A DNA stretch of 64,000 bases from an uncultured Desulfospira sp. (GTDB lineage: Bacteria > Desulfobacterota > Desulfobacteria > Desulfobacterales > Desulfobacteraceae): assembly GCA_963663165.1 (NCBI GenBank), contig OY760175.1, positions 4,448,001-4,512,000 of the forward strand, read 5' to 3'. Under the pieces are notes generated by a model that did no database searches, was not told the origin of the DNA, and saw only the letters and a program-made list of their open reading frames with translations. A program made the translations under genes and the position numbers. The first letter of the stretch is position 1. Every line of letters starts with the position of its first letter. Of the stretch, positions 1 through 16,663 are shown in pieces.

Positions 1-1
1 C

Positions 2-457: not shown

Positions 458-754
458 AGTTTAATAAGTGTTCAATTTGTTTATCTAAGCTCGCCCTATC
501 CTATTTCAAAAAAGCATCCGATATCAGAAGTATTGTGGAGGAGGGATCATTTTAAATTTTTACTGAGGACTACACCATTATCGAAGTGACCCCAGTGTGG
601 AATTTCAAACCCCGGACTATTATTAAAAGCCATGACCATCCAATCCCCTATAAACGGCCACAGGCCGACTTGGTTATCCAGCCAGGCACCGCCCACAACG
701 AAAAATAATAGTCTTTTCAGTTTGTTAGTGAGACTTTCATATAATAAAGACGGA

Positions 755-997
755 TGCCCGAGGTTATTTGAAATCCTGGTGGCGTTGTATTCATAAAGGA
801 TTTTCATGGGGCATAATCCGCCAAAAACCTTCAGGGGTACGCAATAAACCTTTAATGGTTCGCCTGCCTTTATTTGCCTATTGTATAACAGCCGCAGACT
901 GATTGGGTTAGTCCGAAATATCCGGGTTGGGCGGCGAAAAATTGTCCACAACGAATATTGAAAGAATCATTTTTCAGGAGGCTTTCCGGCATCGTGA
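755..997 (+). pseudogene. Possible decayed ECF S-component (MptD-like) 3' remnant
   Basis: Broken-frame fragments GYLKSWWR, MVRLPLFAYCITAA and RILK-NHF...SGIV resemble the C-terminus of such S-components (recalled consensus KLLKKHFxKAGIV) and lie directly before ecfT. Confidence 0.3.
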
Positions 998-1011
998 GAG
1001 ACGGGCTTTTA

Positions 1012-1764: not shown

Positions 1765-3275
1765 TCCGGATTAAAAATTTAAGCTTTACCTACAAACCGG
1801 ACAAAACCGGCTGGATACTTAAGGATGCCTGCCTGGATGCCGCACCCGGGGAATGCATCCTGGTCTGCGGGGCCAGCGGGTGCGGGAAAACCACCCTGAC
1901 CCGGGCCGTTAACGGATTGATTCCCCATTTTGAAAAAGGGTGGCGGGCCGGCCGGGTCCTGGTGAACCGGGCCGGGGCTTACCGGGATGTTAAGCATTTC
2001 AGACCCCATGAATTGGCCCGGATCATGGGATCTGTATTCCAGGACCCAAGATCCCAGTTTTTTACCACCCGGGTAGAAGATGAGGTTGTCTGGGGATGTG
2101 AGAACTTAAAATTTGAAAAGAAAAAGATGACGGATCGCCTGGCGCAGGCCCTTTCCCTGTTCAACCTGGAACATCTGCGGGACAGGAACGTGTTTGAACT
2201 GTCCAACGGGGAAAAGCAGCGGGCCGTGTTTGCCTCGGTTTGGGCCATGGAACCCGGCATCTATGTTTTGGATGAGCCCTCATCCAACCTGGACCCGGGG
2301 TCGGTTCAAAATTTACGCTGGATTATCCGCCGGCTCAAAGGAAAAGGCCACACCGTTGTGATTGCCGAGCACCGCTTATATTACCTGGCCGGCCTGATTG
2401 ACCGCATGGTGGTCATGGACCGGGGAAAAATTAAAGCCTGTTACCAGGGCGGGGAAATTCAAGCGCTTTCATCTTCAGCCCTTGAAACCCGGGGGCTTCG
2501 CAGAATGGATCCGGCACACCTTGAGTTTAACGGAGGATCGGGGAGTGCCGGTGCCGGCGGTTCCGGGAAGGTCGGCCGCCAGGACCTGGTGCTTAATAAC
2601 CTGGGATTCCGGCACAAAGGAGACGCCAACCCGGTGATTAGAGATGTCAGCTTTACCATTTCAAGGGGAGAAATTTTAGGGATTTGCGGTCCCAACGGGT
2701 CAGGGAAAACCACCCTGTGCCGGCTGGTCTCAGGCTTGATCCGGAAGACAACAGGTGAGGTCTGCCTTGGCAGCACCCCGTTGCCGGCCAAAGAGCGGCT
2801 TAAGATCTGCCATCTGGTGCTCCAGCAGGCAGACCATCAATTGTTCAGGGCCAGTGTCCGGCAGGAAGTTTTGTCCATGCCCCGGTGCGCAGGAAAAGAC
2901 CGTTTTGCCATAGAGGAGATCCTTCAGTGCCTGGGCCTGCTGGACCTGGCCGATTGTCATCCCCAGGCCTTGTCCGGGGGGCAGAAGCAGCGCCTGTCCA
3001 TTGCCTGCGCCCTGGCCAGGGCCCCGGATTTTTTGATCCTTGATGAGCCCACATCCGGCATGGATGCCGGGCATATGAACCGCCTTGCCGGCCTGCTCAA
3101 GGCGTTTGCCGAAAGGGGCCGCGCTGTGGTGGTGGTCACCCATGATGCGCAGTTTATGGCAAAGACCTGTGCCCGGGCTGTGCTTCTGGATCAGGGCCGG
3201 GTAAGGATGAACCTGGATCTTTCAGAACCCCATAAGGAATTTAACGATTATCTAACCCAGGGAATTTTACCCTGA
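1761..3275 (+). CDS. ECF/ABC ATPase with duplicated nucleotide-binding domains (A-A' fusion)
   Basis: Two Walker A (GASGCGKT, GPNGSGKT), signatures LSNGEKQR and LSGGQKQR, two LDEP Walker B; GTG start overlaps the ecfT stop. Confidence 0.9.
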   Translation: MIRIKNLSFTYKPDKTGWILKDACLDAAPGECILVCGASGCGKTTLTRAVNGLIPHFEKGWRAGRVLVNRAGAYRDVKHFRPHELARIMGSVFQDPRSQFFTTRVEDEVVWGCENLKFEKKKMTDRLAQALSLFNLEHLRDRNVFELSNGEKQRAVFASVWAMEPGIYVLDEPSSNLDPGSVQNLRWIIRRLKGKGHTVVIAEHRLYYLAGLIDRMVVMDRGKIKACYQGGEIQALSSSALETRGLRRMDPAHLEFNGGSGSAGAGGSGKVGRQDLVLNNLGFRHKGDANPVIRDVSFTISRGEILGICGPNGSGKTTLCRLVSGLIRKTTGEVCLGSTPLPAKERLKICHLVLQQADHQLFRASVRQEVLSMPRCAGKDRFAIEEILQCLGLLDLADCHPQALSGGQKQRLSIACALARAPDFLILDEPTSGMDAGHMNRLAGLLKAFAERGRAVVVVTHDAQFMAKTCARAVLLDQGRVRMNLDLSEPHKEFNDYLTQGILP

Positions 3276-3365
3276 AAGACCGTGGCGGCCTAAATTTTCG
3301 TTTAAGGTCCGCCCGCAGCAAGAGTGAAAAAAAGAACCGTTTTAAGCTGTACCAACCCGCGGACA

Positions 3366-3400
3366 ACTAACAGCTAATGGCTAACAGCTAACAGCTAATC
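3366..3400 (+). repeat. Heptamer tandem repeat family A (GCTAAYR)x5
   Basis: actaaca gctaatg gctaaca gctaaca gctaatc, directly before the RBS aaaggagg. Confidence 0.85.
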
Positions 3401-3411
3401 AAAGGAGGACC

Positions 3412-4431
3412 ATGGAAACCATAACCGACACCGGCATTAACTACCGAAGCATTGAACAGATGCTTTTCAGCAGTATTAAATCAAGGCTGTTGCTTTGTGC
3501 CATCAAGCTTAAAGTGTTTGACCTGCTCGATACCCCGGCCGAGAGTGAAACCGTGGCGGCAGCGCTGAACACCCACCCGGACAATACACGGCTGATGCTC
3601 AAGGGGCTTACGGCCTGCGGCCTTGTCCGGTATAAAGAGGGGAAATATGAAAATACAGGAGAATCAAACGCCTTTCTTAGGTCAAAAAGCGCGGCCTGCA
3701 TCACCGGATGGCTGGACCAGGCCGCCGGGATGTTCGGCCCGATCCTGGATAATTTTGAAACCCTGGTTAAGAAAGGTCCCACGCCTCCCGGGCCGGACAC
3801 CCATATGAACTCTGAGGCCATGTGCGAATTTTATACCCATGCCCATGCCCAGACCGAACTTGCCGGGGTGGCCGCCAAAACCGCCGGGATTGTCCGGGAC
3901 CTGTCTGAATTTTCAAGCATGAAGAAAATGCTGGATCTCGGGGGCGGGCCGGGGTTGAATTCAGTTGCCATTGTCCAGGCCCATGACACCCTTGAAAGCG
4001 TGGTGTTTGACAGGGCATCCGTGGCGGCCATTGCCCGGGCGTATATTGAACGGTTCGGCTGTGTCGGCCGGATCACCACGCTTTCAGGCGATTACACCAA
4101 AGATGACCCGGGAAACGGGTATGATCTGGTGCTGGCTTCAGATACCCTGTATTATGAGGGAAGCGAACTGGAACGGATTGCTGCCCGGGTTTATGATGCC
4201 TTAAATCCCGGCGGGGTACTGGTAGGGATTCACGGGGTGGTGACCAAGGACCGGACCGGCCCCGGGCCCATGGTCCTGGGCATGCTGCCCGATGCCCTTA
4301 TGGGCCAGGGGGAACTGCCCTGCGAAGGGTTTCTGGCACCGGCCCTGCTCCGGGCCGGGTTCAAACAGGTGCAGACCAGAAAAATGTTCATGGTATCTAA
4401 TGAAATGGAGGTAGACATCGCAAGAAAATGA
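3412..4431 (+). CDS. SAM-dependent O-methyltransferase (dimerisation HTH plus Methyltransf_2 type)
   Basis: N-terminal AIKLKVFDLL/wHTH region, MLDLGGGPG SAM motif; strong RBS. Confidence 0.85.
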   Translation: METITDTGINYRSIEQMLFSSIKSRLLLCAIKLKVFDLLDTPAESETVAAALNTHPDNTRLMLKGLTACGLVRYKEGKYENTGESNAFLRSKSAACITGWLDQAAGMFGPILDNFETLVKKGPTPPGPDTHMNSEAMCEFYTHAHAQTELAGVAAKTAGIVRDLSEFSSMKKMLDLGGGPGLNSVAIVQAHDTLESVVFDRASVAAIARAYIERFGCVGRITTLSGDYTKDDPGNGYDLVLASDTLYYEGSELERIAARVYDALNPGGVLVGIHGVVTKDRTGPGPMVLGMLPDALMGQGELPCEGFLAPALLRAGFKQVQTRKMFMVSNEMEVDIARK

Positions 4432-5246
4432 AACGTATCGTTGAATCTTTATCCAATCATGCCAATGAATATATCCGCTGCCTGGCCGGTTCCCATCCGT
4501 TACGAAAGCCGGTTCTCAGTGCCATGCTGGACTTTCTTTCCCTTGAGGGCAAAGGGCTTGATGTCGGCTGCGGCATCGGGCTTCCCGCTGTGGAGATGGC
4601 CCTGAAAGGCCTTGATGTGACCGGCCTTGACCGGGAAGGGGAGTTTATCGAAATTGCCCGGGGGACTGCCGAAACACTCGGGCTTAAAGACTCCCCGGTT
4701 TTTGTCCGGGGGGATGCCGGCCGCCTTGAATTTGAAGCCGATTGTTTTGACTGGGCCTGGAGCATGGATTGTGTCAATTACGCCAAAGGCCTGAATACCA
4801 CCCCTTTATCGGAAATGAAACGGGTGACAAAACCCGGGGGACGGCTGATCCTTTCCGCCTGGTCTTCCCAGATGCTGCTGCCGGGATATCCAATGCTGGA
4901 GGCCCGGTTGAACACAACCCCTGAGGGGTTGGCCCCCTTTGAGGCCGGCATGGCCCCGCTGCACCACTTCATGGCCACGGCAGGGGTATTCAAACAGATG
5001 GGCCTGAAAGCCGTTCGGTGCCAAACTTTTTTACGGGACATTTCCCTGCCTTTGTCCAGCGGGGAAACACAGGCCATGAAAGATATATTTTACATGCGCT
5101 GGTCAGGTTCTCCGTCCGGGCTGGCGCCTGGGGAAAAATCCCTGTACACGGCCCTGACCGATCCTGAGTCTGACCGGTTTGTCCTTTTAGAGCCCGGGTT
5201 TTACGGATTTTTTACCTATACGATGTTCACCGGTGTGGTGCCGTAA
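4428..5246 (+). CDS. Class I SAM-dependent methyltransferase
   Basis: LDVGCGIG, GDA..LEF, RVTKPGG motifs; ATGA overlap with the upstream gene. Confidence 0.9.
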   Translation: MKRIVESLSNHANEYIRCLAGSHPLRKPVLSAMLDFLSLEGKGLDVGCGIGLPAVEMALKGLDVTGLDREGEFIEIARGTAETLGLKDSPVFVRGDAGRLEFEADCFDWAWSMDCVNYAKGLNTTPLSEMKRVTKPGGRLILSAWSSQMLLPGYPMLEARLNTTPEGLAPFEAGMAPLHHFMATAGVFKQMGLKAVRCQTFLRDISLPLSSGETQAMKDIFYMRWSGSPSGLAPGEKSLYTALTDPESDRFVLLEPGFYGFFTYTMFTGVVP

Positions 5247-5335
5247 ACAGCAACCGGGGCTTTGGGCCATCATTGCCCCTGTAAATATGTATATTAAAAC
5301 CGCCATGGGGCTTTGGGCTGTCCTTTACTTTTTCT
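5245..5335 (+). pseudogene. 5' remnant of a YbtP/IrtA-like siderophore ABC transporter
   Basis: KQQPGLWAIIAPVNMYIKTAMGL resembles the recalled YbtP N-terminus (PLWQVITPVRRKVILAMAL); similarity stops after about 25 codons; 12-bp direct repeat GGGGCTTTGGGC at 5256 and 5307. Confidence 0.4.
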
Positions 5336-5432
5336 GCCGCCTTGTAACTGCCTGTGGCAAGGGGACAGCTTTGAATGGCGCCTTGATTTTATTCGGACAT
5401 TCATGGGGGGGGTGGCATCCTAAACCTGGGCT

Positions 5433-6443
5433 TCACCATGTGGCCGGCTGGCTCTTCCGGGCTGTCGCCTCTTTAAGGAGGGTGACCGGCGGATAGTTGA
5501 ACTGCCGGGTAAAGGCTCGGGTAAAATGGGCCCGGTTGGCATACCCGACCTGATAGGCCACCTCTGATACGGTGGTGTCCCCTTTTTCCAGCAGTTCATG
5601 TCCCTTTTCCATTCTCCTGGAAAGGACATAGGCCGAAATTGTGGTGTGGAACAGGTGCTTAAATCCTTTTTTCAATTTGGTCTGGTTCAGCCCGGTTTGC
5701 CGGGCAAGTGCCGCCAAGGTCGGCGGGTCGTGATACTGCCGGTCCAGGATTTGGCGGACCTGGTACAGCTGTTCTTTTTCACGGCTGGAGGGAAGGCGGC
5801 CATGGGCCTCAGGGAGAGAAGGAGATTTGAAGCGGCCCATGGCCAGCGCAATGATTTCCAAAGATTTGGCGGTCAGATAAATGGTTTTTGCGGTTCCCGT
5901 GAACCGGCAATCCATTAACTGCCGGGCCGCCATCCCCATGGAAGGACTTAAACTGTTTTTGACATACGGCAGCGGTTCAGATGCTTGGGCCTTTGCAAAA
6001 GGCAGGCCGCCCATGATGCGTTTGCTCATCTCCCGGTAAGGCAGCCTGTCCGGTTCAATCAGCAGACTGATCAGCAGGATGGGGTCATGGGGCATGCCCT
6101 CAATGATGCCATTATCCAGGTCAGATCCGGACAAGCACATCTCGAACTGCCCCGGCAGGGTCTGGTATGTGGGAACCGGCCCGGGCCGGTCCTGGGTCCA
6201 GTTGAGCCGGCCGGACATGCAAAGGGTGATTCCCAAAAAATAATGTTCAGGAATTACCCGGGCACACAGTTGTTCTTTTAAGGTATAATGTTCCAGGTAA
6301 AGCTTTAATCCTGGCTCCAGGGATATTTCCCTGCGGTACCCTTTGCCGATGGCATGGGGCAGGGTTCGCACAGTTTCAGCCCCATCCCGGGCAGGATGTC
6401 CTCCATAGCACTGAAACTGTTCAAATAATCTGGATGTATTCAT
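5433..6443 (-). CDS. AraC-family transcriptional regulator, PchR/YbtA-like
   Basis: PPTLAALARQTGLNQTKLKKGFKHLF...VSEVAYQVGY.NRAHFTRAFTRQF. Confidence 0.9.
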   Translation of the reverse strand: MNTSRLFEQFQCYGGHPARDGAETVRTLPHAIGKGYRREISLEPGLKLYLEHYTLKEQLCARVIPEHYFLGITLCMSGRLNWTQDRPGPVPTYQTLPGQFEMCLSGSDLDNGIIEGMPHDPILLISLLIEPDRLPYREMSKRIMGGLPFAKAQASEPLPYVKNSLSPSMGMAARQLMDCRFTGTAKTIYLTAKSLEIIALAMGRFKSPSLPEAHGRLPSSREKEQLYQVRQILDRQYHDPPTLAALARQTGLNQTKLKKGFKHLFHTTISAYVLSRRMEKGHELLEKGDTTVSEVAYQVGYANRAHFTRAFTRQFNYPPVTLLKEATARKSQPATW

Positions 6444-6468
6444 TAATCAAATAAAATTTTGTTCAACA

Positions 6469-6534
6469 TTGACAACTCAATTATATGAGTAAATTTTATT
6501 TGTCAACCAATTAATTTATTCATAATATGAATAA
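6469..6534. promoter_or_regulatory. AT-rich araC promoter region with palindromic operator candidates
   Basis: TTATTCATA-A-TATGAATAA (6516-6534) perfect 9-1-9 palindrome; ACTCA-N6-TGAGT (6475-6490); TTGACA-type hexamers on both strands. Confidence 0.5.
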
Positions 6535-6602
6535 TGTTCGTTTAATCAAATATTACAATTTACGAAAGCTTTCGGCCTTTTTATACCGTCACGTCAGGGG
6601 GG

Positions 6603-8711
6603 CTATCTGGCCGGGGATCGTGATATTTTGGCCTCGTCAAAGGATGCCATTTCGCTCATGATCCGGCATGCGGTCTGGGCAAGCTCAATGGCCAGGGCCG
6701 CGCCCGTGGCTTCTCCCAACCGCATGTCCAGATCCATTACGGGTTCAAGTCCCATGTATTCCAGGGCGGCGGCCTGGGCCGGTTCCACGGATTTATGGCC
6801 GCAGATAAGATACCCCCGGATTTGGGGGCAGAGCATATAGGCCAGAAGGCCTGCTGCCGTGGAGATAACCCCGTCCAGAACCACGGCGCACCCCTTTGAT
6901 GCGGCGGCCAGGGCCGCACCGGCAATGCCGGCCAGTTCAAATCCCCCAAGCTTCATGAGAACATCAAGCCCCTCTTCCGGGTCAATGGCGTGGAAATGAA
7001 GTATTTTTTCAACTACCTCTGCCTTATGGGACAGCCCTTTGTTGTCCAGGCCGATTCCCCTGCCCGTGGCCTGTGCCGGTGAAAGGCCTGTGACAGCACA
7101 GATTATGGCCGTGGCGCTGGTGGTATTGCCGATGCCCATTTCTCCCAACCCCAGGATCTGGGGGGGCTCCGGGTCGCTGACGGCGGCAAACGCCCGGATC
7201 CCGTTTTCAAGGGCCTGTACCGCCTCATCCCGGGTCATGGCAGGTTCTAAGGCCATGTTCCTGGTTCCTGACGCCACCTTGGCCCGGATCAGGTCCGGGT
7301 GGGGGGAAAAGTCTTTGTCCACCCCCATGTCCACCACCTTCATGTCAATGCCGTGACAGCGGCAGATCACGTTGATGGCGGCCCCGCCGTTAAGGAAATT
7401 ATCCACCATCTGCCCGGTAACCTCCCGGGGAAATGCCGACACTCCTTCTTCGGTAACCCCATGGTCTGCGGCAAACACCAGGACCGCTTTTTTCCGGATA
7501 GCCGGTTTCAGGCTGTTCTGGATAACGGCCATCTGCACCCCTAAGCCTTCTAATTTTCCAAGGGAGCCCAGGGGCTTGCTTTTATCGTCCATTTTGGCAC
7601 GGGCTTCAGGGCCGAGGGTGCCTGCCGGGTCAATTCCCTTGATGGTGTCCATGATTAACCGGCTTTGAGAAATTGTGGTGAAGGAAGAGAGGGCCTCCTG
7701 TTTTTTCGGCAGGGCCTGATCCCGGGCCGATGTCTTAGTGGTTTTTCCGGTAAAATCCAGGATATATTTAAAGGCCTTGCCTTTTAATACTTTTGGAAGC
7801 ACTTGCGGTGCCTGTTCCGGCTGAACCACCCCTTCAATTAGCCGGGCCAGGGATTTTTCATGGGAAATCAAAAAGGGGACACCCCGTTCCATATCTGATT
7901 TTTTCATGCCATAGGCCCCTGAAATGGCAATTTCCTTGTAGTGGATCAGGTTCAGCAGGTTGGTTTCAATGGATTCATTTTTGGTGATGCCGGAAAAAAA
8001 GGAGAAATGGCCGCCCTTGTCCACCTTGGTAAGGGCCTGGCTAAAGGCAATATAATCGGGACAGGCATTAATCACGATATCAAACCGACTGTCATGGGTT
8101 TCCTTGGCACAGGCCAGGTCTTCCGCCGCCAAAACAGGGGCGATTTTCTGGATTTTTACCTCATCCTTTTCCAGGATAAAGGGCTCAAGGCCCCGGTGCC
8201 GGGCATAAATGGCCGTGATCAGCCCCATGGTGCCCCCGCCGTAAACAAGGATCCGTTTGCCCGGGGTAACGGGAAATTGATCAAAGGCGTTGACCACGCA
8301 TCCCACAGGTTCGGCGAAACAGGCCACATGGGTATCCAGTTCGTCTGGTGCGGGAATAAGGCTTGCCAGGGGCACCACGGCTTTGTGGGCAAATCCGCCG
8401 TCCCGGTGAAACCCGATAATTTTCATTTCATCACAAAGGTTTTCCCTGCCGGATCTGCAATAAGAACAGGTCCCGCAGCTGGTTCCCGGCCAGACCAAAA
8501 ACCTTTGGCCGTCCCGGGCAAGGACCACCATCTCATGGCCTAACACCCGGGGAAACACCAAATCCCGCTGTCCCTGCACCCACATCTTGGCATCGGTCCG
8601 GCAGACAGCACAGGCCAGCACATCCACCAGGACTTCATCAGGTCCGGGTTCCCGGACAGGCAGCGGCTGGATTTCAAGTTTTCCCAACCCTGTCAGCACC
8701 ATTTGGATCAT
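6603..8711 (-). CDS. cobT: Fusion: Zn-dependent medium-chain dehydrogenase (N-terminal) and nicotinate-nucleotide-dimethylbenzimidazole phosphoribosyltransferase CobT (C-terminal)
   Basis: MDR motifs CAVCRTD, GHE, CGTCSYCRSGRENLC, GGGTMG; CobT motifs KPLGSLGKLE, AADHGV, GEMGIGNTT, RLGEATGA; one uninterrupted frame of 702 aa. Confidence 0.92.
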   Translation of the reverse strand: MIQMVLTGLGKLEIQPLPVREPGPDEVLVDVLACAVCRTDAKMWVQGQRDLVFPRVLGHEMVVLARDGQRFLVWPGTSCGTCSYCRSGRENLCDEMKIIGFHRDGGFAHKAVVPLASLIPAPDELDTHVACFAEPVGCVVNAFDQFPVTPGKRILVYGGGTMGLITAIYARHRGLEPFILEKDEVKIQKIAPVLAAEDLACAKETHDSRFDIVINACPDYIAFSQALTKVDKGGHFSFFSGITKNESIETNLLNLIHYKEIAISGAYGMKKSDMERGVPFLISHEKSLARLIEGVVQPEQAPQVLPKVLKGKAFKYILDFTGKTTKTSARDQALPKKQEALSSFTTISQSRLIMDTIKGIDPAGTLGPEARAKMDDKSKPLGSLGKLEGLGVQMAVIQNSLKPAIRKKAVLVFAADHGVTEEGVSAFPREVTGQMVDNFLNGGAAINVICRCHGIDMKVVDMGVDKDFSPHPDLIRAKVASGTRNMALEPAMTRDEAVQALENGIRAFAAVSDPEPPQILGLGEMGIGNTTSATAIICAVTGLSPAQATGRGIGLDNKGLSHKAEVVEKILHFHAIDPEEGLDVLMKLGGFELAGIAGAALAAASKGCAVVLDGVISTAAGLLAYMLCPQIRGYLICGHKSVEPAQAAALEYMGLEPVMDLDMRLGEATGAALAIELAQTACRIMSEMASFDEAKISRSPAR

Positions 8712-8911
8712 GACAAATCCTCTTCTGTTAACACCAGTTTTTTAATCGTGACCTTCGGATATCCTTTTTCTGAGGCCTGCCGCATAAGCTTTCTGACCTC
8801 TTCCAGCCGGTCCATGGGAAAGACCGACGCCTTGTCCAGGCCGACCTCAAGAATGCCGCTGTCCTTAAATCTTAAATATGTATGGTGGGATTTTATAATC
8901 AACAGTTCCAT
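8708..8911 (-). CDS. Small hypothetical protein (67 aa) in the B12 operon
   Basis: AAGGA RBS, 10 nt after the trpD-like stop; its stop overlaps the start of the fusion gene (ATGA). Confidence 0.75.
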   Translation of the reverse strand: MELLIIKSHHTYLRFKDSGILEVGLDKASVFPMDRLEEVRKLMRQASEKGYPKVTIKKLVLTEEDLS

Positions 8912-8921
8912 GATGGTGTCC

Positions 8922-10031
8922 TTAAACCAGTGAATGAAGGGTGTTTAATCCTTTCTCAGGATGACTGTTCTGGGCCGATACCCAGTTTTCCAGGGTTTCA
9001 AAGGCCCTGCCGTTTTCCAGGAGGCAGGCGGCCTGTTCAATGCCCTGGTCCAGGTCGTTGGCCTTGCCGGCGCAAAGCAAGATCAGGCCGGCATTGAGAA
9101 TGGCCGCATCTTTTCGGGCGCTGCTTTCCCTTCCGGCCATGAGCCTTGCAAATCGTTTCACCTCCCGGTCCATTTCAGGTTCCGGCCTTAAATCTTCACA
9201 GGATGAGGCGGCCAGTCCCAGGGGCCTGGGGTCAATGGTGAAACGCTTGATCTGTGCCTGGCCGGTTGTTTTATCGGTTGAGATTTCAGCGCAACGGGTC
9301 TGGCCGCAGACCGAAGCCTCATCCATGCCCTGTCCTGAACCGTCTACCCGTCCGTGAAGCACAATAGCCCGGGTATAGCCGATTTCTTTCATGACCTTGG
9401 CCACCGGCATGATCATTTCCTCAGCGTATACCCCCCGGACGCCAATGGACGGCAGGGCCGGGTTGGCCAGGGAGGCGGCAATGTTCAGGGTGGACCCGAA
9501 ATAAAGCTGGGAGAGAATCCGGCCCAGGGCATTGGGGTGAATCTTAGGGCTCATCCCGTTGAACAGCCCCAATCCGGCAGACTGGATGCTTTTGGCCACA
9601 GTCTGGGCGGAACACTCCACATCCACCCCTAAAGATTCGGCCATATCCACCGTGCCGCAGGTCGAGGTAATGGCCCGGGCCCCGTGCCGGGCCATGGGAA
9701 CGCCTCCTGCGGCGGCTATAATGGATGAGGCAGTGGAAATATTAAAGGTTTTAAAAGAGTCCATGCCGGTTCCGGAATTTTCCGCGACCGCCAGGTCCAG
9801 GGCTACTTTGGTGGTGTCCAACTCGTAAATGGCTTCCCAGGCCCCGGCCACTTCTTCAGCACTTTCGCCTTTGGCGGTAAGGGCGGCCAGAAAGGCCCCC
9901 TGCTGGATCTGGGTGGTGGCATTGCTGAGAATGGTGGAGAACGCCTCAAAGGCGGCTTCCCGGCTTAGATTTTCCTTGTTGATGAGGCGGGTGATGACAG
10001 CCCCAAAGGCCCTATCGGTTTTTATGGTCAT
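8922..10031 (-). CDS. Anthranilate phosphoribosyltransferase (TrpD)-like paralog, glycosyltransferase family 3
   Basis: GAFLAALTAKGESAEE, SGTGMD..TFNIST, RHGAR, GMDE motifs; GGAGG RBS; no other trp genes nearby. Confidence 0.85.
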   Translation of the reverse strand: MTIKTDRAFGAVITRLINKENLSREAAFEAFSTILSNATTQIQQGAFLAALTAKGESAEEVAGAWEAIYELDTTKVALDLAVAENSGTGMDSFKTFNISTASSIIAAAGGVPMARHGARAITSTCGTVDMAESLGVDVECSAQTVAKSIQSAGLGLFNGMSPKIHPNALGRILSQLYFGSTLNIAASLANPALPSIGVRGVYAEEMIMPVAKVMKEIGYTRAIVLHGRVDGSGQGMDEASVCGQTRCAEISTDKTTGQAQIKRFTIDPRPLGLAASSCEDLRPEPEMDREVKRFARLMAGRESSARKDAAILNAGLILLCAGKANDLDQGIEQAACLLENGRAFETLENWVSAQNSHPEKGLNTLHSLV

Positions 10032-10113
10032 AAGAATCCTCCAAATACTTCCCTGGTGTCGGGAAAATTATTCAACAGGACCTTATTCCAGCGGCAATCC
10101 TTTGGCGCTTTTT

Positions 10114-10376
10114 TGTCCGGGCAGGCTTTCCGGCTTGCGGATCACTCTAATTGCTGCACCTTCCCCTGAATTGAGCTATTAGCTTTTAGCCGTTAGCCAT
10201 TAGCTTTCGGCTAACGGCTAATGGTTTATAGCTAACAGCTTTTTCACAGAGTGGCATATTGCAGGTTTCGTCCCCGCTTACGGCAACGGCTGGTATGCAA
10301 CGGATTTTCACCGTTTTTCCTTTTACCCCGGATCCCGCTTTCAGTTAAAAAGCCGGGAAACCCAGGCACCCTGACA
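10114..10376 (-). ncRNA. Cobalamin (B12) riboswitch
   Basis: Minus strand: AGGGTGCC...TAAAAGGAAAAACGGTGAAAATCCGTTGC...GCCGTAA...GCCACT...GGGAAGG...AAGCCGGAAAGCCTGCC; P1 TGTCAGGG/CCCGGACA; upstream of the cobT-containing operon. Confidence 0.9.
10174..10240. repeat. Family A heptamer hairpin inside the riboswitch
   Basis: agctattagcttttagccgttagccattagc-tttcg-gctaacggctaatggtttatagctaacagct, near-perfect inverted repeat of GCTAAYR units. Confidence 0.85.
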
Positions 10377-10385
10377 GTGACGTAA

Positions 10386-10415
10386 ATTATAAGGATTACA
10401 AGGGGGTTTTGTCAA
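10386..10415 (-). promoter_or_regulatory. Sigma70 promoter for the riboswitch operon
   Basis: Minus strand TTGACA-N18-TATAAT, both hexamers perfect, ending about 10 nt before the riboswitch 5' end. Confidence 0.8.
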
Positions 10416-10445
10416 TCCCCTGACCGGATAATCGCAGATAATTTG

Positions 10446-10991
10446 TTACCGCCGCCCACCCCGTAAAAAACCGAAGACGGCACCGATACATCCGCCGGCC
10501 AGGTGGCCGAACTGGGAGATATTGTCGGTTTTAAAGATGTCGGTCAGCTCAGAGCCAATGTAAATGGCGGCAATAAGGATAAAGGTTAACGGGATCTCCC
10601 GGCTCCTGAAATTGGAAAAAGAACCCAGCAGGATCATCATAAACACCAGGCCGCTGCCGCCGATCAGGCTGGTGTGAAACAGGGCGGCATTGAATAACGC
10701 CGTTGCGGCCGCCGTGATGACAAACATTTCAAAGAGCCGCCAGGACCCGTATTTTTCCTCTAAAAGCGGGCCTAAAAGCAGGATGAAAATGATATTTCCT
10801 TTAAAATGAGTCCATCCGGCGTGGGCCAGGACATGGGTAAACAGCCTGATGTAAAACTTCGGGTCTGAAAAGGCCATGTGGGAAGGGGAGGAAAGGCTCA
10901 GTCCCGTAAAATTTGAAACCGGCAGCAGCAGGCAGATCAGGGCCAGAATGCCGTAGGTAAGAATAACAGGGGAGTTGTATCTGATTTTCAT
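10446..10991 (-). CDS. Rhomboid family intramembrane serine protease
   Basis: FTHVLAHAGWTHFKGN, LEEKYGS, GGSG catalytic Ser, GHLAG catalytic His; AGGAGG RBS. Confidence 0.9.
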   Translation of the reverse strand: MKIRYNSPVILTYGILALICLLLPVSNFTGLSLSSPSHMAFSDPKFYIRLFTHVLAHAGWTHFKGNIIFILLLGPLLEEKYGSWRLFEMFVITAAATALFNAALFHTSLIGGSGLVFMMILLGSFSNFRSREIPLTFILIAAIYIGSELTDIFKTDNISQFGHLAGGCIGAVFGFLRGGRR

Positions 10992-11226
10992 ATCCGCCTC
11001 CTTAAATCAGGTTTTACAAGGGGATCTTGAGCAAACATGGTTTTGTTTTTCGTATTTTGGGCTTTAAATAAAAGCCAAAACGCCTCTGACAGTCCGTCCT
11101 GAGGGTTATACCCGGGCAAACCGGCCCGGTCAACCCTGATTCGCCATGTTTCCAGGACAGGGCCATCACATGTAAAAAAACAATCCATCCTGGAATGGGG
11201 GAATAAGGATACCGCCAATAAAACGT

Positions 11227-11319
11227 AAGGAGACCGGAGGAAAGGAGACCGCAGACCGGAATGCGAAACCCCTAAGGATGCGCGATCCGGTCTCCCGTCT
11301 CCTTTCCTCCGGTTTCCTT
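11227..11319. repeat. Long inverted-repeat hairpin (GGAGACC/GGAGGAA units)
   Basis: aaggagaccggaggaaaggagac...gtctcctttcctccggtttcctt followed by a T-run, in the rhomboid/panB divergent spacer. Confidence 0.7.
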
Positions 11320-11488
11320 TTTTTATTTATTATCCTTATCATCGAAATCGACATCACCAGCAGGCAAGTTACATGCGATCACCCTTTTTCCGGGACAGAC
11401 AGCCTTGAAACTTAACGGATTTTGATTTAGTGTAGTCACGCATCAATGTCCGCTTGTTTATAAATTTTTAGTCAAAGGAGAGTGCCCC

Positions 11489-12280
11489 ATGCCGGCCCGC
11501 GTCACCACGTCAAGTTTGATGAAAATGAAACAGGAAGGGAAAAAAATTACCGCCCTGACCGCATATGACTATCCTTTTGCCTCTTTGCTGGACCAGGCCG
11601 GGATCGACATGATCCTGGTGGGGGATTCTTTGGGGATGGTGGTTCAGGGAAAAGAGACCACCCTGCCCGTTACCATGGATGAGATGATCTACCATACGGC
11701 CATGGTGTCACGGGCCTGCCAATACTCAATGGTGGTGGGGGATATGCCGTTTATGTCCTATCAGGTCTCGTTGGACAAAGCTGTTGAAAATGCAGGACGG
11801 ATCATCAAGGAAGGTCTCGCCCAGGCCGTAAAGCTTGAAGGCGGGGCCGATGTCTGCCCGGCCATTAATGCCATGGCAAAGGCCGGGATTCCGGTTCAGG
11901 CCCATATCGGCCTGACCCCCCAGTCGGTCCACCAGATGGGCGGGTTCAAGGTCCAGAGGGATGAAGAGCGCCTGTTAAAGGATGCTAAGGATGTGGAAAA
12001 TGCCGGGGCTTTTTCCGTTGTTTTGGAAGGGATTCCATCCCCCATCGCCGCAAAGATCACCCAGGCCCTGGCCATCCCCACTATTGGTATCGGGGCAGGG
12101 GCCGGATGTGACGGGCAGATCCTGGTTCTTCACGACATGCTGGGCATCAATGACCGGTTTTTGCCCAAGTTTGTCAAAAAGTATGCGGACCTGGCCATTG
12201 AGGCCAAAAAAGGTGTGGCCGCCTACATTGAAGAGGTCAGGCAGGGAACCTTTCCCTCTGAAGATTATGAATACAAATAA
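11489..12280 (+). CDS. panB: 3-methyl-2-oxobutanoate hydroxymethyltransferase
   Basis: [41 protein letters not shown]. Confidence 0.97.
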
Positions 12281-13163
12281 CCTTTCCTTTACCATTATCG
12301 GATGCGGCCGCCTGGGAACCAACCTGGCGGCTTTTCTGGCCCAGAATGGATTTGTGCCGGCGGCCCTGTGCAGCAAAACCGAACAGTCTGCCCGCCGGGC
12401 TGTCCAGGCGGCGGGCGCAGGCAAGGTGGTGGATGACCCCATTGAAGCGGCCCGGACCTCTAACCTTATTTTTATCACCACCCCGGATACGGTCATTGAG
12501 TCTTTGTGTGGCCATATGGCTTCAAAGGGCGGATTTGGACCGGACTCTATTGTCTTTCACCTTTCAGGGGCCCTGCCGTCCAGTATTCTGGATTCAGCCG
12601 GAAAGGTCGGGGCCGGTATCGGGTCCATCCATCCCCTCCAGGCCTTTGCCCCTTACAAACCGGGGCAGGCATCCCCGTTTAAAGGAATTAACATCTCACT
12701 GGAAGGCAGTGAGAGAGCGGTCAGCCTGGGCAAAGAGATTGTCAACAGCCTTGGGGCCAATTACTTCACTATTCCCACCCGGGCCAAGGTCCTTTACCAT
12801 GCATCGGCTGTGGCTGCTTCCAATTATCTGGTAACCCTGGAGCATTTTGCCCTTTGCCTTTTGATGGAAACCGGGCTTCCCGAAAGCCGGGCCTATGAAA
12901 TTCTGGAACCGTTGATTCAGGGAACCTTGAAAAACATTAAAGCCCGGGGCAGCGTGAATGCGCTGACCGGCCCCGTGGCCAGGGGGGATGATGATATCAT
13001 TGCCCGGCACCTGGCCGATATCGACGAAAAAATGCCACGATTTTCAGATCTGTACAGACTCTTGGGACGACATACCCTGGATATCGCCGGCCAGAGAGGA
13101 GAGATTTCTCAACAGGCTATGGACAGGCTTTCCCGCTTGTTTAGTTCTGAAAAAGCGCATTGA
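12267..13163 (+). CDS. Rossmann-like/DUF2520 oxidoreductase, probable PanG-type ketopantoate reductase
   Basis: [41 protein letters not shown]; start overlaps the panB 3' end. Confidence 0.85.
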
Positions 13164-13390: not shown

Positions 13391-14332
13391 ATGCAAAAAG
13401 AGTCTAAAAAAACGTTTTACGAAAAGTTGGAAGCAAAAGGGGTCTCAAGAAGGGATTTCCTCAAGTACTGTACTGCCCTTACCGCTACCATGGGATTGTC
13501 CTACTCCTGTGTGGGCAAGGTCGCCGAGCAGATTGAACAGGCCGCAGCAACCCGGCCGCCTGTGGTCTGGCTGCATTTCAGTGAATGCACCGGCTGTTCG
13601 GAAGCCTTCCTGAGGACACCGGATGTGGGGGGCATTATCCTTGAAACCATTTCAGTTGAGTACCATGAAACCATCATGGCCGCAGCCGGCCATCAGGCCG
13701 AAAAGAACCTGCATGACGCCGTTGAAAAGTACACCGGTAAATTCGTATGTGTCGTGGAAGGCGCTATTGCCACCAATTACAACGGGGCCTACGGCAAAGT
13801 TGCCGGCAGAACTTTCCTGGAAATCGCCAAGGATGTCGTGCCCAAGGCCGCGGCAACCATCTGTCTGGGAACCTGTGCCTGTTACGGCGGCGTAGCGGCA
13901 GCCGCTCCCAACCCGGGTGGATACAAGGGCGTGGGTGATGCGCTGGGCATCTCCCCCATCAACCTCCCCGGTTGTCCCACCAATCCCCTTAACCTGCTGG
14001 GGACCATTCTCAAATACCTGAACAATGAAGCCATGGAGCTGGACGATTACGGCAGGCCCATGTTCGCCTATGGCGAGACGGTTCACGACAACTGCCCCCG
14101 GCTTAAGCATTACGAAGAAGGCAATTTTGTTGAAGAATTCGGGTCCAAGGAAGCTGAAATGGGCTACTGTCTTTACCAGATGGGCTGTAAAGGGCCTGAA
14201 ACCTATAATAACTGTCCTACTGCAAAATTTAATGATGCCACCAGCTTTCCCATCCAGGCCGGCCATCCCTGCATCGGATGCAGCGAGCCTGACTTCTGGG
14301 ACAGCATGACACCGTTTTACGAAGAATCTTAA
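13391..14332 (+). CDS. Periplasmic [NiFe] hydrogenase small subunit
   Basis: Tat signal SRRDFLKYC; ECTGCSE, GTCACYGG, LPGCP, HDNCPR, CLYQMGCKGP, HPCIGCSEPDFWD; no C-terminal membrane anchor. Confidence 0.96.
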   Translation: MQKESKKTFYEKLEAKGVSRRDFLKYCTALTATMGLSYSCVGKVAEQIEQAAATRPPVVWLHFSECTGCSEAFLRTPDVGGIILETISVEYHETIMAAAGHQAEKNLHDAVEKYTGKFVCVVEGAIATNYNGAYGKVAGRTFLEIAKDVVPKAAATICLGTCACYGGVAAAAPNPGGYKGVGDALGISPINLPGCPTNPLNLLGTILKYLNNEAMELDDYGRPMFAYGETVHDNCPRLKHYEEGNFVEEFGSKEAEMGYCLYQMGCKGPETYNNCPTAKFNDATSFPIQAGHPCIGCSEPDFWDSMTPFYEES

Positions 14333-14337
14333 CCGCC

Positions 14338-14404
14338 ACTGACGGCTAACGATTAACAGTTAAAAGCTAATGGCTGACGGCTAACCGTTAAAAGCCAACA
14401 GCTT
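14338..14404 (+). repeat. Family A heptamer tandem array (about 9 units)
   Basis: actgacg gctaacg attaaca gttaaaa gctaatg gctgacg gctaacc gttaaaa gccaaca, just before the large-subunit RBS. Confidence 0.8.
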
Positions 14405-14420
14405 ACGAAAGGATATTATT

Positions 14421-16058
14421 ATGGGTAAAAGAATTATTGTTGACCCGATTACCAGAATCGAGGGTCATTTGAGAATCGAAGTTGAAGTTGAAAACGGCAA
14501 AGTCAAGGATGCCTGGAGTTCAGGGCAGATGTTCCGGGGTATTGAGATGATGCTCCAGGGCCGGGATCCTCAGGATGCCCACCATTTTGTACAAAGGTCC
14601 TGCGGGGTCTGTACCTATATTCATGCCCTTTCTTCTGTCAGGGCTGTGGAAGATGCCTGTAACATTGAAATCCCTGAGAATGCCCGAATTATCCGGAACC
14701 TGCTTCACGGGGCCCAGTACCAGCATGACCATATTGTTCATTTTTATCACCTCCACGCCCTGGACTGGGTGGATATTGTCAGCGCCCTGTCAGCAGATCC
14801 GGTTAAAACCGCTAAACTTTCGGAAAATGTGTCCGGACGTCCCCAGAGTTCAGAATATTTCAAAACGGTTCAGACCAAGCTGACAACCTTTGTCAACAGC
14901 GGTCAGCTCGGCCCGTTTAACAACGCTTACTGGGGCCACTCCGCCTATCAGCTGCCGGCAGAAGCCAATCTCATGGCGGCTTCCCATTACCTGGAAGGCA
15001 TCAAACTCCAGGCCAAAGCCGCCCGGATGCATGCCATTTTCGGCGGCAAAAACCCCCATCCCCAGTCCCTGGTGGTGGGCGGTGTCACCTGTGTGGGCGA
15101 CCTGACCCCGGAAAGAATTGATGAGTTCGTGGATATCTGGAAAGAAACCAAAGCCTTTGTGGACGAAGTGTATCTGCCGGATCTCCTGGCCGTGGCCTCT
15201 TTTTATAAAAATTGGGGCGCCATTGGCGGAAACAACGACACCTTCCTGGCTTATGGCGACTTCCCCCAGAAAAATATCAATGACGACCTGCTGCTTCCCA
15301 GCGGGGTTCTTTTAGGAGACCTTAGCCCCAAAGCCGTGGATACTCAAAAAATCACTGAGGACGTTACCCGGTCCTGGTATGAAGACGGCAGCGCCAAACA
15401 TCCCTATGAGGGGGAAACCAAGCCCATCAAGGGTGAAGTGACCTACAACACGGAGGATAAGTACTCCTGGATAAAAGCCCCCCGGTATGCGGGCAAATCT
15501 GCTGAAGTCGGCCCCCTTTCAAGGGTTCTCGTGGCCTATACCAGCGGCCAGGAACACGTAAAGAAACTGGTGGACCATACCCTTAAAACCCTGGACGTGA
15601 AAACCGATGCCCTGTTCTCCACCCTGGGCAGAACCGCTGCCCGGGCCATTGAAACCGTGGTGGTCGGTGATGCCATGGAAGGATGGATTGATACCCTTAA
15701 ATCCAACATTTCTGCGGGCAACAAAAAGACCTACCAGTCCTGGACCATGCCGGACAAGGGCAGGGGATACGGCCTCAATGATGTTCCCCGGGGCGCTCTG
15801 GGCCACTGGATCGATATTGAGGGCGGCAAGATCAAAAATTACCAGTACGTGGTTCCCTCCACCTGGAACCTTGGTCCCAGCGACGCCTCAAATCAGAAAG
15901 GGCCTGTGGAAAGCTCTTTGATCGGCACCCCCATTGCCGATCCCCAAAAGCCCCTGGAAGTGTTGAGAACCGTCCATTCCTACGATCCGTGCATTGCCTG
16001 TGCCATACACGTGATTGATCCGCATACTAACGAAACCTATAAGGTAAGAGTGATATAG
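14421..16058 (+). CDS. Periplasmic [NiFe] hydrogenase large subunit (group 1)
   Basis: DPITRIEGH, RSCGVC, DPCIACAIH followed by a cleavable C-terminal tail; Cys, not Sec. Confidence 0.97.
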   Translation: MGKRIIVDPITRIEGHLRIEVEVENGKVKDAWSSGQMFRGIEMMLQGRDPQDAHHFVQRSCGVCTYIHALSSVRAVEDACNIEIPENARIIRNLLHGAQYQHDHIVHFYHLHALDWVDIVSALSADPVKTAKLSENVSGRPQSSEYFKTVQTKLTTFVNSGQLGPFNNAYWGHSAYQLPAEANLMAASHYLEGIKLQAKAARMHAIFGGKNPHPQSLVVGGVTCVGDLTPERIDEFVDIWKETKAFVDEVYLPDLLAVASFYKNWGAIGGNNDTFLAYGDFPQKNINDDLLLPSGVLLGDLSPKAVDTQKITEDVTRSWYEDGSAKHPYEGETKPIKGEVTYNTEDKYSWIKAPRYAGKSAEVGPLSRVLVAYTSGQEHVKKLVDHTLKTLDVKTDALFSTLGRTAARAIETVVVGDAMEGWIDTLKSNISAGNKKTYQSWTMPDKGRGYGLNDVPRGALGHWIDIEGGKIKNYQYVVPSTWNLGPSDASNQKGPVESSLIGTPIADPQKPLEVLRTVHSYDPCIACAIHVIDPHTNETYKVRVI

Positions 16059-16146
16059 GTTGATAGACTGAAGGCTGAAGGTGGATAGACTTAAAGGATG
16101 ATCAGAGCACTGACTTCCTTCAGCCTAAACACCTTCAGTCTAAACC
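16058..16146. repeat. Family B inverted repeat (AGACTGAAGGCTGAAGG / CCTTCAGCCTA)
   Basis: ggttgatagactgaaggctgaaggtggatagac...ccttcagcctaaacaccttcagtctaaacc. Confidence 0.85.
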
Positions 16147-16159
16147 CCTAAAGAAGATT

Positions 16160-16663
16160 ATGAATGACAATATTACCGTTCTTGGCGTGGGCAACATCCT
16201 TTACAGTGATGACGGCGTGGGCGTGCGCGTGGTTGAAGCGCTCATGGCGGCATACGAATTTTCAGACAACGTTTCCGTGGTGGACGGCGGGGTTTTGGGA
16301 ATCAACCTGCTGGGGGTGATTTCCAGTGCCGGCCGGCTCATTGTGGTGGATACGGTGTTAAATCATGGAAAGCCCGGTGATTTTCACCGTCTGGAACATG
16401 ACCAGATCCCGGACCGGATTCTGGCCAAGAACTCCCTTCACCAGGTGGACCTGATTGAGGCCCTGACCCTGTGCAAAGCCCTGGACCATGTGCCCCGGAC
16501 CACCATCATCGGCATTGAGCCTGAAGACTTAAATACCCTAAGCGACAAGCTGACCCCAACCATCCAGAACAAACTGGAAGAACTGACCCAAAAAGTCCTG
16601 GAGGAAGTCGGTAAACTCGGGGGCTCCTACACGCCTAAAAACGGGCAGCCTAAATCTTGTTGA
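16160..16663 (+). CDS. Hydrogenase maturation protease (HyaD/HybD family)
   Basis: VLGVGNILYSDDGVG, VDGG, SLHQ, IGIEP. Confidence 0.95.
   Translation: MNDNITVLGVGNILYSDDGVGVRVVEALMAAYEFSDNVSVVDGGVLGINLLGVISSAGRLIVVDTVLNHGKPGDFHRLEHDQIPDRILAKNSLHQVDLIEALTLCKALDHVPRTTIIGIEPEDLNTLSDKLTPTIQNKLEELTQKVLEEVGKLGGSYTPKNGQPKSC

Follow-up and report, generated by a model that had tools for sequence, protein, structure and literature searches.

Why should a genome with a canonical trpD in its tryptophan operon carry a second, TrpD-like gene behind a cobalamin riboswitch? This question is raised by a locus in the 64,000-nucleotide stretch of DNA from an uncultured Desulfospira sp. that we analyzed (hereafter, the window), in which exactly one open reading frame (ORF) on the minus strand, stop codon included, fills the interval assigned to a TrpD paralogue (TrpD*, protein P0001; Table 1). 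Our analysis indicates that TrpD* probably belongs to a distinct and widely conserved family of the TrpD fold that works outside tryptophan synthesis, as a transferase of the phosphoribosyl pyrophosphate (PRPP) type that would cooperate with a dehydrogenase in the part of cobamide assembly served by CobT, the lower-ligand branch. The sequences that carry this argument document predicted riboswitch control, linkage and fusions among TrpD*, the dehydrogenase and CobT, kept PRPP/Mg motifs, and replaced anthranilate residues. Most of the functional information lies in the strand, the riboswitch, the link to CobT and the dehydrogenase partner, all of which fell outside an earlier note on this DNA (the first-pass annotation).

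By every comparison of sequence and fold, TrpD* is closest to anthranilate phosphoribosyltransferase. P0001 carries the Pfam domains PF02885 and PF00591 and scores 237.3 bits with TIGR01245, the NCBI model for TrpD, above the cut-off of 199.05, and its nearest solved structures by HMMER are all TrpDs (9ucw at 153.7 bits, 1vqu and 5noe). Models for other enzymes of the fold all score far under their cut-offs (YbiB 26 versus 185 bits, AMP phosphorylase 42.7 versus 535, thymidine phosphorylase 43.1 versus 434), and the protein falls outside the NP-II phosphorylases and YbiB as a whole, with at most 43 bits against cut-offs of 185-559. An AlphaFold model built from a 27-sequence alignment has a mean predicted local distance difference test score (pLDDT) of 91.9, with its least confident block at residues 171-180 (63), inside the stretch 169-191 considered below; the best PDB matches listed for it by Foldseek are all TrpDs (template modelling score 0.77-0.86, 23-31% identity). 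Close homologues (67-93% identity) bear the source names Desulfobacter, Desulfobacula, Desulfospira, Desulfotignum and Desulfopila, and every protein name listed among the TrpD* homologues is anthranilate phosphoribosyltransferase. The TIGR01245 cut-off admits the TrpD* family. The host genome (6.74 Mb, one contig) holds a second TIGR01245 match of 405 bits, which is the canonical trpD and lies elsewhere, in trpE-trpG-trpD-trpC-trpF. TrpD* is thus not the only trpD of the genome and has no trp-operon context, standing instead behind a B12 riboswitch, and the first-pass annotation was right to call it a paralogue rather than the housekeeping enzyme.

Where TrpD* departs from TrpD is the acceptor site. 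The strings quoted in the first-pass annotation all occur in P0001: GTGMD at residues 87-91, FNIST at 96-100, RHGAR at 115-119, LGRILSQLYFGSTLNIAASLANP at 169-191 and DE at 237-238. We compared them in a MAFFT alignment of P0001 with 97 full-length representatives of a 50%-identity library, comprising canonical TrpDs, members of the subfamily and a small number of intermediates, as well as with the host's own TrpD, and in HMMER alignments of P0001 to the solved TrpDs 9ucw, 1vqu and 5noe, the last being T. kodakarensis TrpD (TkTrpD). In both, canonical rows read GTGGD, KHGN(R/K) and F--AP..HP...vRkeLGiRTvFNllGPLtNP. P0001 and about 14 library representatives share a different signature in the MAFFT alignment: GTGMD replaces GTGGD, (R/K)HGAR replaces KHGN(R/K), a two-residue insertion gives F-NG-MSP (FNGMSP), xRILSQxxFG(S/T)xLNIA(A/G)SLANP replaces vRkeLGiRTvFNllGPLtNP, and a five-residue insertion stands ahead of GMDE.

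The meaning of these positions can be taken from the characterized archaeal enzyme. In the excerpted text of PMC5537072, KHGN(101-104) of TkTrpD is the conserved anthranilate-binding motif, of which HGN is ascribed to PRPP binding and the Lys to anthranilate; Arg159 (Mtb Arg193, Sso Arg164), on helix alpha-8, hydrogen-bonds anthranilate and is essential in catalysis; GTGGD is the signature PRPP loop of the TrpD family, and DE binds metal. The 5noe alignment reproduces this numbering and pairs Gly77 with Met90, Lys101 with Arg115, Asn104 with Ala118 and Arg159 with Leu173, the last pairing having a two-residue gap just upstream that makes a register shift onto Arg171 possible, while DE217-218 is retained as D237-E238. 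We examined 102 bacterial and archaeal homologues, of which 76 came from the genome collection and the remainder from the host phylum. Met90 is found in 101 of them; position 118 holds Ala in 95 cases and Ser in 7, and position 115 holds Lys in 68 cases and Arg in 34; Arg171, Leu173, Gly179, Asn158 and D237-E238 are present in all 102. Arg171 is therefore an invariant Arg two residues ahead of the lost anthranilate Arg. Because these residues are near-invariant over so broad a set, we conclude from the sequences that the acceptor site is under strong selection and has not decayed, and that its alterations are not a matter of chance.

These results sharpen the earlier reading of the site. Its claim that the PRPP/Mg elements are kept is borne out by the retained GTGxD, NIST, HG.R and DE motifs, and alignment to characterized TrpDs, which it had named as a check, finds the anthranilate-binding residues not intact. 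Its claim that the Asn and Arg contacting anthranilate are changed stands in substance, with Ala or Ser for the KHGN Asn and Leu for the Arg throughout the 102 homologues, but the key Arg is the first R of 'vRr' and not that of 'GIRT', a position (Gly179 in P0001) that is Lys in TkTrpD and R, K, P or S, among others, in canonical rows. Likewise, of the change from KHGNR to RHGAR, the replacement of Asn by Ala is almost family-wide, whereas Lys to Arg at position 115 is specific to some lineages. Since the excerpts of PMC5537072 assign HGN to PRPP binding, the Asn-to-Ala change may touch the ribose/PRPP side as well as the acceptor.

TrpD* also separates from TrpD by descent. In a quick maximum-likelihood tree of 88 rows (IQ-TREE, with support from the Shimodaira-Hasegawa-like approximate likelihood ratio test only), canonical TrpDs and TrpD*-like sequences are split by a branch with support 100, and a core clade with support 99 takes in 39 of the 40 sequences that had been labelled TrpD*. 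The remaining one, L066 (genome G088), groups with P0133, a GTGGD/RHAAR variant, and has no adjoining dehydrogenase. Together with P0133, P0141, P0147, P0156 and P0179, L066 makes up the sister lineages lying between TrpD* and canonical TrpD, which mix motifs such as GTGGD with RHAAR or GTGAD with KHGAR. In one further locus (L067, genome G149, 9331-10430) the TrpD* gene occurs as two overlapping pieces with an in-frame TAG, beside a small ORF and a dehydrogenase-CobT gene that look intact; the gene may be broken there, or the assembly may be at fault. Judged by sequence, TrpD* is a TrpD descendant, and probably works in a similar way, but it fails three defining TrpD sequence features as well as the genomic context, and it ought not to be filed as anthranilate phosphoribosyltransferase.

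If not tryptophan synthesis, what pathway does the gene serve? Its surroundings in the window give the first answer (Table 1). TrpD* is followed by a small ORF and by a gene that fuses a zinc-dependent dehydrogenase to CobT, and a cobalamin riboswitch aptamer precedes it, 71 nt upstream of its start codon; promoter, riboswitch and the three genes would form a single module repressed by B12.

Table 1. Features of the TrpD* module, in coordinates of the window.
Feature	Position	Strand	Basis
TrpD paralogue (TrpD*)	10031..8922	minus	single ORF, 369 codons + stop = P0001
Sigma-70-type promoter (consensus match), TTGACA-18 nt-TATAAT	10415..10386	minus	12/12 consensus; ends where the aptamer begins
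Cobalamin riboswitch aptamer, RF00174	10388..10103	minus	full-length, 71.2 bits versus gathering 31.5
Conserved small ORF, 67 amino acids	8911..8708	minus	homologues follow TrpD* in other loci
Zn-dehydrogenase-CobT fusion, 702 amino acids	8711..6603	minus	Pfam and TIGRFAM matches

We take the TrpD* gene to be B12-regulated, a response to the ligand being predicted from the RF00174 match. The aptamer is a recurrent feature, found directly upstream of TrpD* in 17 of the 20 host-family loci scanned and directly ahead of the dehydrogenase/TrpD* pair in 9 of 10 bacterial loci of other phyla. The promoter is a consensus match only: the region contains three promoter-like sites against 3.3 expected from shuffled sequences, and this is the sole perfect one. 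As to how the riboswitch might act, no terminator-like site was found between the aptamer and the ATG of TrpD*, and sequestration of the ribosome-binding site by the riboswitch platform was considered and dropped because its pairing in the fold is no better than in shuffles (z -1.02). The first-pass annotation had guessed at a benzimidazole or purine acceptor and at ribazole phosphates, a guess that fits the riboswitch ahead of the gene and the dehydrogenase-CobT fusion behind it.

The fusion gene links TrpD* to CobT. Its N-terminal part, approximately residues 1-340 (window 7692-8711; ADH_N, ADH_zinc_N), is a zinc-dependent medium-chain dehydrogenase, and residues 369-696 match CobT, the nicotinate mononucleotide (NaMN):base phosphoribosyltransferase, with 419.5 bits in TIGR03160 against a cut-off of 319.3. 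The best named model for the dehydrogenase, L-threonine 3-dehydrogenase (Tdh), reaches 104 bits, far under its cut-off of 380. The catalytic zinc ligands Cys37, His59 and Glu60, the four structural-zinc cysteines, the GxGxxG motif and the acidic residue after beta-2 are each kept in 85-91 of 91 homologues; to judge from these residues the dehydrogenase looks functional, and the acidic residue suggests a preference for NAD. Among 61 genomes of the host family, Desulfobacteraceae, 31 (in 16 of 19 genera) carry TrpD* and 30 do not. A long-frame cobT of at least 590 amino acids occurs in 29 of the 31 positive genomes versus one of the 30 negative ones, the latter being a fragmented assembly in which the gene touches the edge of a contig. 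Six positive genomes (completeness 88-99%) yielded no cobT other than the fused gene, from which we take it that the fusion can act as a cell's only CobT. The host genome itself has another lower-ligand unit (L037, C1:5091993-5094621), which consists of a cobalamin riboswitch, a ThiC-like (BzaF-type) gene about 635 kb from the TrpD* module, and a standalone CobT 45% identical to the fused one; with this unit elsewhere in the genome, the TrpD* module constitutes a second, separate CobT system.

The association holds well beyond the host. In 27 of 30 short host-family loci, including that of the window, the dehydrogenase lies directly downstream of TrpD* (of the three exceptions, one is a contig end and two are real), and in 18 of 20 host-family loci with 8-kb flanks the same is seen while nothing else there is conserved. 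A scan of the phylum, covering 401 genomes from 10 families, gave a match in 13; the dehydrogenase adjoins TrpD* in 10 of the 11 phylum loci outside the host family, where it is mostly a separate gene upstream of TrpD*. Some of these loci read as cobamide operons, namely dehydrogenase-TrpD*-CobT-CobS-CobD-CbiB (L064), dehydrogenase-TrpD*-CobT-CobS (L061) and CbiJ-CbiE-x-dehydrogenase-TrpD*-CbiZ-like-BtuB (L060). To survey prokaryotes at large, we searched one genome per species with two peptide patterns specific to the family; at least 600 stretches matched, and at least 572 TrpD* loci were confirmed. We inspected the best 80 of these, ranked against a Methanothrix member, with flanks of 7 kb on either side. 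They come from archaea (Methanotrichaceae, Methanomassiliicoccales, Methanophagales, Syntrophoarchaeum) and bacteria (Dehalococcoidales, Aquificota, Peptococcaceae and other Firmicutes, Actinomycetota, Calditrichales). In the 76 of them in which a TrpD* ORF was called, the dehydrogenase is encoded on the same strand no more than two genes away in 71, and of the five loci where it is not, three are at contig starts. The flanks of 36 of the 76 hold an archaeal-type CobT (TIGR00303; 324 bits, cut-off 240) and those of 5 a bacterial-type one; in the gene strings, these CobT genes adjoin the dehydrogenase/TrpD* pair. The two partners are also found fused to each other, in a 732-residue protein (P0304) that has all four Pfam domains and is 54% identical to P0001 over 99% of the latter. 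TrpD* is, in sum, firmly tied in function to the zinc-dehydrogenase and to CobT. Another long protein, P0305 (787 amino acids), joins TrpD* to a Peptidase_C11 domain and is possibly a merged gene call.

Between the two enzyme genes lies the small ORF, which starts ten bases past the TrpD* stop and whose TGA stop overlaps the ATG of the dehydrogenase-CobT gene (ATGA). Its product has an invariant A-S-V-x-P core in an alignment of 24 homologues, finds no match in Pfam and meets only 'hypothetical protein' clusters in Atlas. The AlphaFold model (pLDDT 96.6) consists of four strands, a helix and a fifth strand, a fold for which no PDB match was obtained at E<=0.001. Homologues stand behind TrpD* in 27 of the 30 short host-family loci, in three phylum loci outside the host family (L057, L058, L067) and in a Peptococcaceae locus; a match in a Firmicutes locus is weak (28 bits), and none was detected in the archaeal loci. 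In the one host-family genome that has its dehydrogenase-CobT gene elsewhere, the small ORF remains with TrpD*, and one library representative (P0140) fuses TrpD* with the small ORF. A search of longer proteins with the small protein as query returned no fusions, which is weak evidence. We read the location of the ORF, its stop/start overlap and the single fusion as signs that the small protein may be an accessory subunit of TrpD*.

Taken together, these observations lead us to propose that TrpD* would move ribose-5-phosphate from PRPP, or a close ribosyl-phosphate donor, onto a nitrogen nucleophile other than anthranilate, and that the dehydrogenase, probably of the NAD type, would then oxidize the adduct. 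The pair would in this way deliver, or condition, the substrate of CobT, which makes the alpha-ribotide of the cobamide lower ligand. We place the dehydrogenase after TrpD* as the last step before CobT by analogy with BluB-CobT fusions, and, as the pocket residues do not vary between Methanothrix and Desulfobacteraceae, we would expect the acceptor to be one and the same compound in every lineage. Several points weigh against this proposal. The suggested order is drawn from that analogy and from nothing else. On alpha-PRPP, TrpD chemistry yields beta-N-ribosides, but cobamides require the alpha form, and a direct 'PRPP-dependent ribazole synthase' is therefore not implied. The donor, too, may be something other than PRPP, since Gly to Met in GTGGD and Asn to Ala in KHGN touch residues that bind PRPP according to the excerpts of PMC5537072. 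Loci of Methanomassiliicoccales have no CobT within 7 kb. In the host family, finally, a BzaF-type gene is present in 21 of 31 TrpD*-positive and 12 of 30 negative genomes; this distribution is not complementary, so the module is not simply an alternative to BzaF, and with 10 of the positives and 18 of the negatives lacking such a gene it neither replaces nor requires it.

What the base might be can be put only tentatively. One version, which we consider doubtful, is that the dehydrogenase/TrpD* pair makes a benzimidazole-type lower ligand independently of both oxygen and radical-SAM chemistry (SAM, S-adenosylmethionine). TrpD* would transfer ribose-5-phosphate from PRPP to an aromatic ortho-diamine or a comparable amine; ring closure by the adjacent amine onto C1' would follow, and the dehydrogenase would oxidize the cyclic aminal, so that C1' would end as C2 of a base passed to the fused CobT. 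This would be the enzymatic, anaerobic counterpart of a non-enzymatic cascade of diamine and ribose-5-phosphate that was reportedly described by Maggio-Hall et al. in 2003. Cobamides with benzimidazole and 5-methylbenzimidazole are likewise said to have been isolated from Desulfobacterium, Desulfobulbus and Methanothrix (Kraeutler, Kohler and Stupperich 1988; Kohler 1988), and relatives of these reported producers, Desulfobacteraceae and Methanothrix, are rich in the cassette. If this version is true, the pair could be the source of benzimidazole and 5-methylbenzimidazole cobamides.

Other explanations for the cassette were weighed against the proposed transferase role in the CobT branch. One of them, an ordinary second anthranilate phosphoribosyltransferase, has on its side the TIGR01245 score (237 over 199 bits) and the names of all listed homologues, but the catalysis-essential Arg is Leu in 102 of 102 homologues, trp context is replaced by B12 riboswitch and CobT linkage, and a canonical trpD exists elsewhere in the genome, which makes this extremely unlikely. 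Another candidate role is NaMN recycling: as an ATP-independent nicotinate phosphoribosyltransferase, TrpD* would turn the nicotinate released by CobT, together with PRPP, back into NaMN, making PRPP the net ribosyl donor of the lower ligand. That the cassette goes with both types of CobT, in both domains, suggests a link to what all CobT reactions share (NaMN or nicotinate) rather than to a lineage-specific base. The pocket is invariant across lineages, and the Arg two residues earlier could suit a meta- rather than an ortho-carboxylate; four cassette-bearing genomes (one Methanothrix-type, two Methanomassiliicoccales, one Dehalococcoidales) have no nicotinate phosphoribosyltransferase (NAPRTase) of PF04095. 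We nevertheless consider it improbable, as it leaves the obligate dehydrogenase idle and the nicotinate flux from cobamide synthesis is tiny, while the host genome itself has a PF04095 NAPRTase and the PncB-type enzyme is commoner with the cassette than without it (20 of 31 versus 9 of 30 host-family genomes), so that the complementarity with PncB looked for in these 61 genomes is not seen.

Both enzymes would find employment if TrpD* made a beta-ribotide from PRPP and the dehydrogenase oxidized its 2'-OH (or 3'-OH), allowing C1' to invert before re-reduction to the alpha-ribotide, in parallel with or upstream of CobT. Such an epimerization could account for a PRPP enzyme in an alpha-glycoside pathway, and the pocket is enlarged (Asn to Ala, Arg to Leu, Gly179 at 'GIRT') as expected for a bicyclic base; it would, however, leave no need for CobT, which among third partners is the one seen most constantly and which is joined to the dehydrogenase in one protein, and we know of no precedent for such a reaction among zinc-dependent medium-chain dehydrogenases, so its probability seems small. 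TrpD* might instead run phosphorolytically or pyrophosphorolytically, like the nucleoside phosphorylases of the same fold, and free a base for CobT to re-use, taking it from a nucleotide or from a loop fragment that had been salvaged or remodelled. The pair occurs in a 1.2-Mb genome of Dehalococcoidales, whose members are corrinoid salvagers, the fold is common to the NP-II phosphorylases (weak matches of 42.7 bits to AMP and 43.1 bits to thymidine phosphorylase), genes for a CbiZ-like amidohydrolase and for BtuB lie behind the pair in L060, and cbiZ, trpD and 'DH' stand in one figure legend on a Chlorobium genome region in PMC8620254. Repression by a B12 riboswitch suits synthesis and salvage alike and does not discriminate; the retained diphosphate/Mg motifs, and a sequence and structure far nearer to TrpD than to any phosphorylase, render base release quite unlikely. 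Least attractive among the routes within cobamide assembly is a supply of the linker, in which a Tdh-like enzyme would make aminoacetone or (R)-1-amino-2-propanol and the pair would stand in for the L-threonine kinase step of the aminopropanol-phosphate arm, a step that is often missing. L-threonine 3-dehydrogenases are the best named dehydrogenase models (104-161 bits), the operons of L064 and of Dehalococcoidales loci include CobD (Thr-P decarboxylase) and CbiB as neighbours, and EC 2.7.1.177 is a pathway gap in haloarchaea in the excerpted text of PMC8305020. Yet the Tdh scores all lie far under the cut-offs (380, 458), the Methanothrix form does better with a scyllo-inosose dehydrogenase model (182 bits), it is hard to see what a PRPP enzyme would do in this arm, and the fusions seen join dehydrogenase, TrpD* and CobT and none involves CobD or CbiB, all of which makes linker supply very unlikely.

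The transferase role in the CobT branch is of interest because cobamide (B12-family) synthesis is regarded as essentially mapped. Remaining gaps include the origin of some lower ligands (benzimidazole, 5-methylbenzimidazole), several non-orthologous replacements in nucleotide-loop assembly, and the rules that decide the type of cobamide made. The lineages carrying the module dominate methanogenic, sulfate-reducing and other anoxic habitats, where the type of cobamide shapes cross-feeding. Given its riboswitch control, the fusions to CobT, partner and small protein, and its spread from archaea to Firmicutes, the two-enzyme unit is a strong candidate for a missing step of cobamide synthesis, conserved over Methanothrix, ANME-1-type archaea (Methanophagales), Desulfobacteraceae, Dehalococcoidales, Aquificota and Firmicutes. 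A full-text literature search (supplements excluded) returned no description of the TrpD* family; the sole co-mention of 'anthranilate phosphoribosyltransferase' and 'cobT' found is the legend cited above from PMC8620254, where it goes uncommented. The altered site described in the first-pass annotation is thus real, while its interpretation is borne out in part and carried considerably further. We conclude that TrpD* is probably a functionally new form of the TrpD fold that acts in a widespread and previously undescribed step of cobamide lower-ligand metabolism. Also new are the TrpD*-small ORF-[dehydrogenase-CobT] architecture typical of Desulfobacteraceae, the small protein, the mapping of residues onto characterized TrpD, the genomes with the fused CobT as their only CobT, and the negative complementarity tests with BzaF and PncB.

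Other genes near the module, and other riboswitches of the host, are recorded here for completeness. Divergent from the module, window 958-5246 (plus strand) encodes a CbiQ-like energy-coupling factor (ECF) T component, a double ECF/CbiO-type ATPase, an O-methyltransferase (Dimerisation and Methyltransf_2) and a class I SAM methyltransferase whose best named model is a corrinoid-protein-associated methyltransferase (42 bits); this block is conserved only in a same-genus genome. The O-methyltransferase (3412-4431) was considered as a BzaC-like partner and rejected, being one of eight paralogues in the genome and 24% identical to the methyltransferase behind the pair in L059. Directly after the dehydrogenase-CobT gene lies an AraC-family regulator (5433-6443, minus strand) with a promoter-like site at 6549..6522, again conserved only in the same genus. 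On the other side, the translations of 13391-16663 (plus strand), inspected by eye, look like the small and large subunits of a [NiFe]-hydrogenase, the former with a twin-arginine leader, and a maturation protease. The host genome has eight cobalamin riboswitches in all. Those at C1:717888-718075, 723946-724174 and 736883-737092 (L033, L034) precede genes with no NCBIfam match at E<=1e-20, for example ORFs of 481, 275, 207 and 259 amino acids, with AraC/PocR-like regulators nearby. From C1:711037 onward (L033:7368-9434), a riboswitch-controlled protein of 689 amino acids combines a periplasmic-binding-protein part with a CbiZ/CbiS-like amidohydrolase part and stands ahead of BtuF, BtuC, BtuD and CbiK. 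The NAPRTase gene (C1:4359790-4360431, minus strand) lies about 10 kb from a riboswitch-controlled cbi operon (C1:4337001-4350000), a proximity that may be due to chance.

How does the module compare with known systems? TrpD itself (EC 2.4.2.18; e.g. 9ucw, 1vqu, 5noe, 1kgz, 1zyk) has the same two-domain class IV phosphoribosyltransferase fold, but TrpD* has '(A/G)S' in place of 'GP', forms a separate clade, and occurs with a B12 riboswitch and CobT rather than in a trp operon. YbiB/TrpD2 and the thymidine, pyrimidine-nucleoside and AMP phosphorylases belong to the same superfamily, with scores far under the cut-offs. The bza operons, reportedly described by Hazra et al. in 2015 as making benzimidazoles anaerobically by BzaAB or BzaF with CobT and BzaC-E, have in common with the TrpD* module a cobalamin riboswitch ahead, CobT as a partner and a lower-ligand context. 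They differ in having a ThiC-family radical SAM enzyme where the TrpD* module uses a phosphoribosyltransferase fold and a zinc-dependent medium-chain dehydrogenase, and among the annotated genes of window 1-13163 there is no ThiC-family radical SAM synthase that would place the module with the bza operons. An architectural parallel is the BluB/CobT2 fusion of Propionibacterium freudenreichii, in which, according to the excerpted text of PMC4657239, a base-making enzyme is N-terminal to CobT, the same fusion architecture as that of dehydrogenase-CobT. BluB, however, is an O2-dependent flavin destructase, whereas the partner in the TrpD* module is a zinc-dependent dehydrogenase that occurs in strict anaerobes and needs TrpD*.

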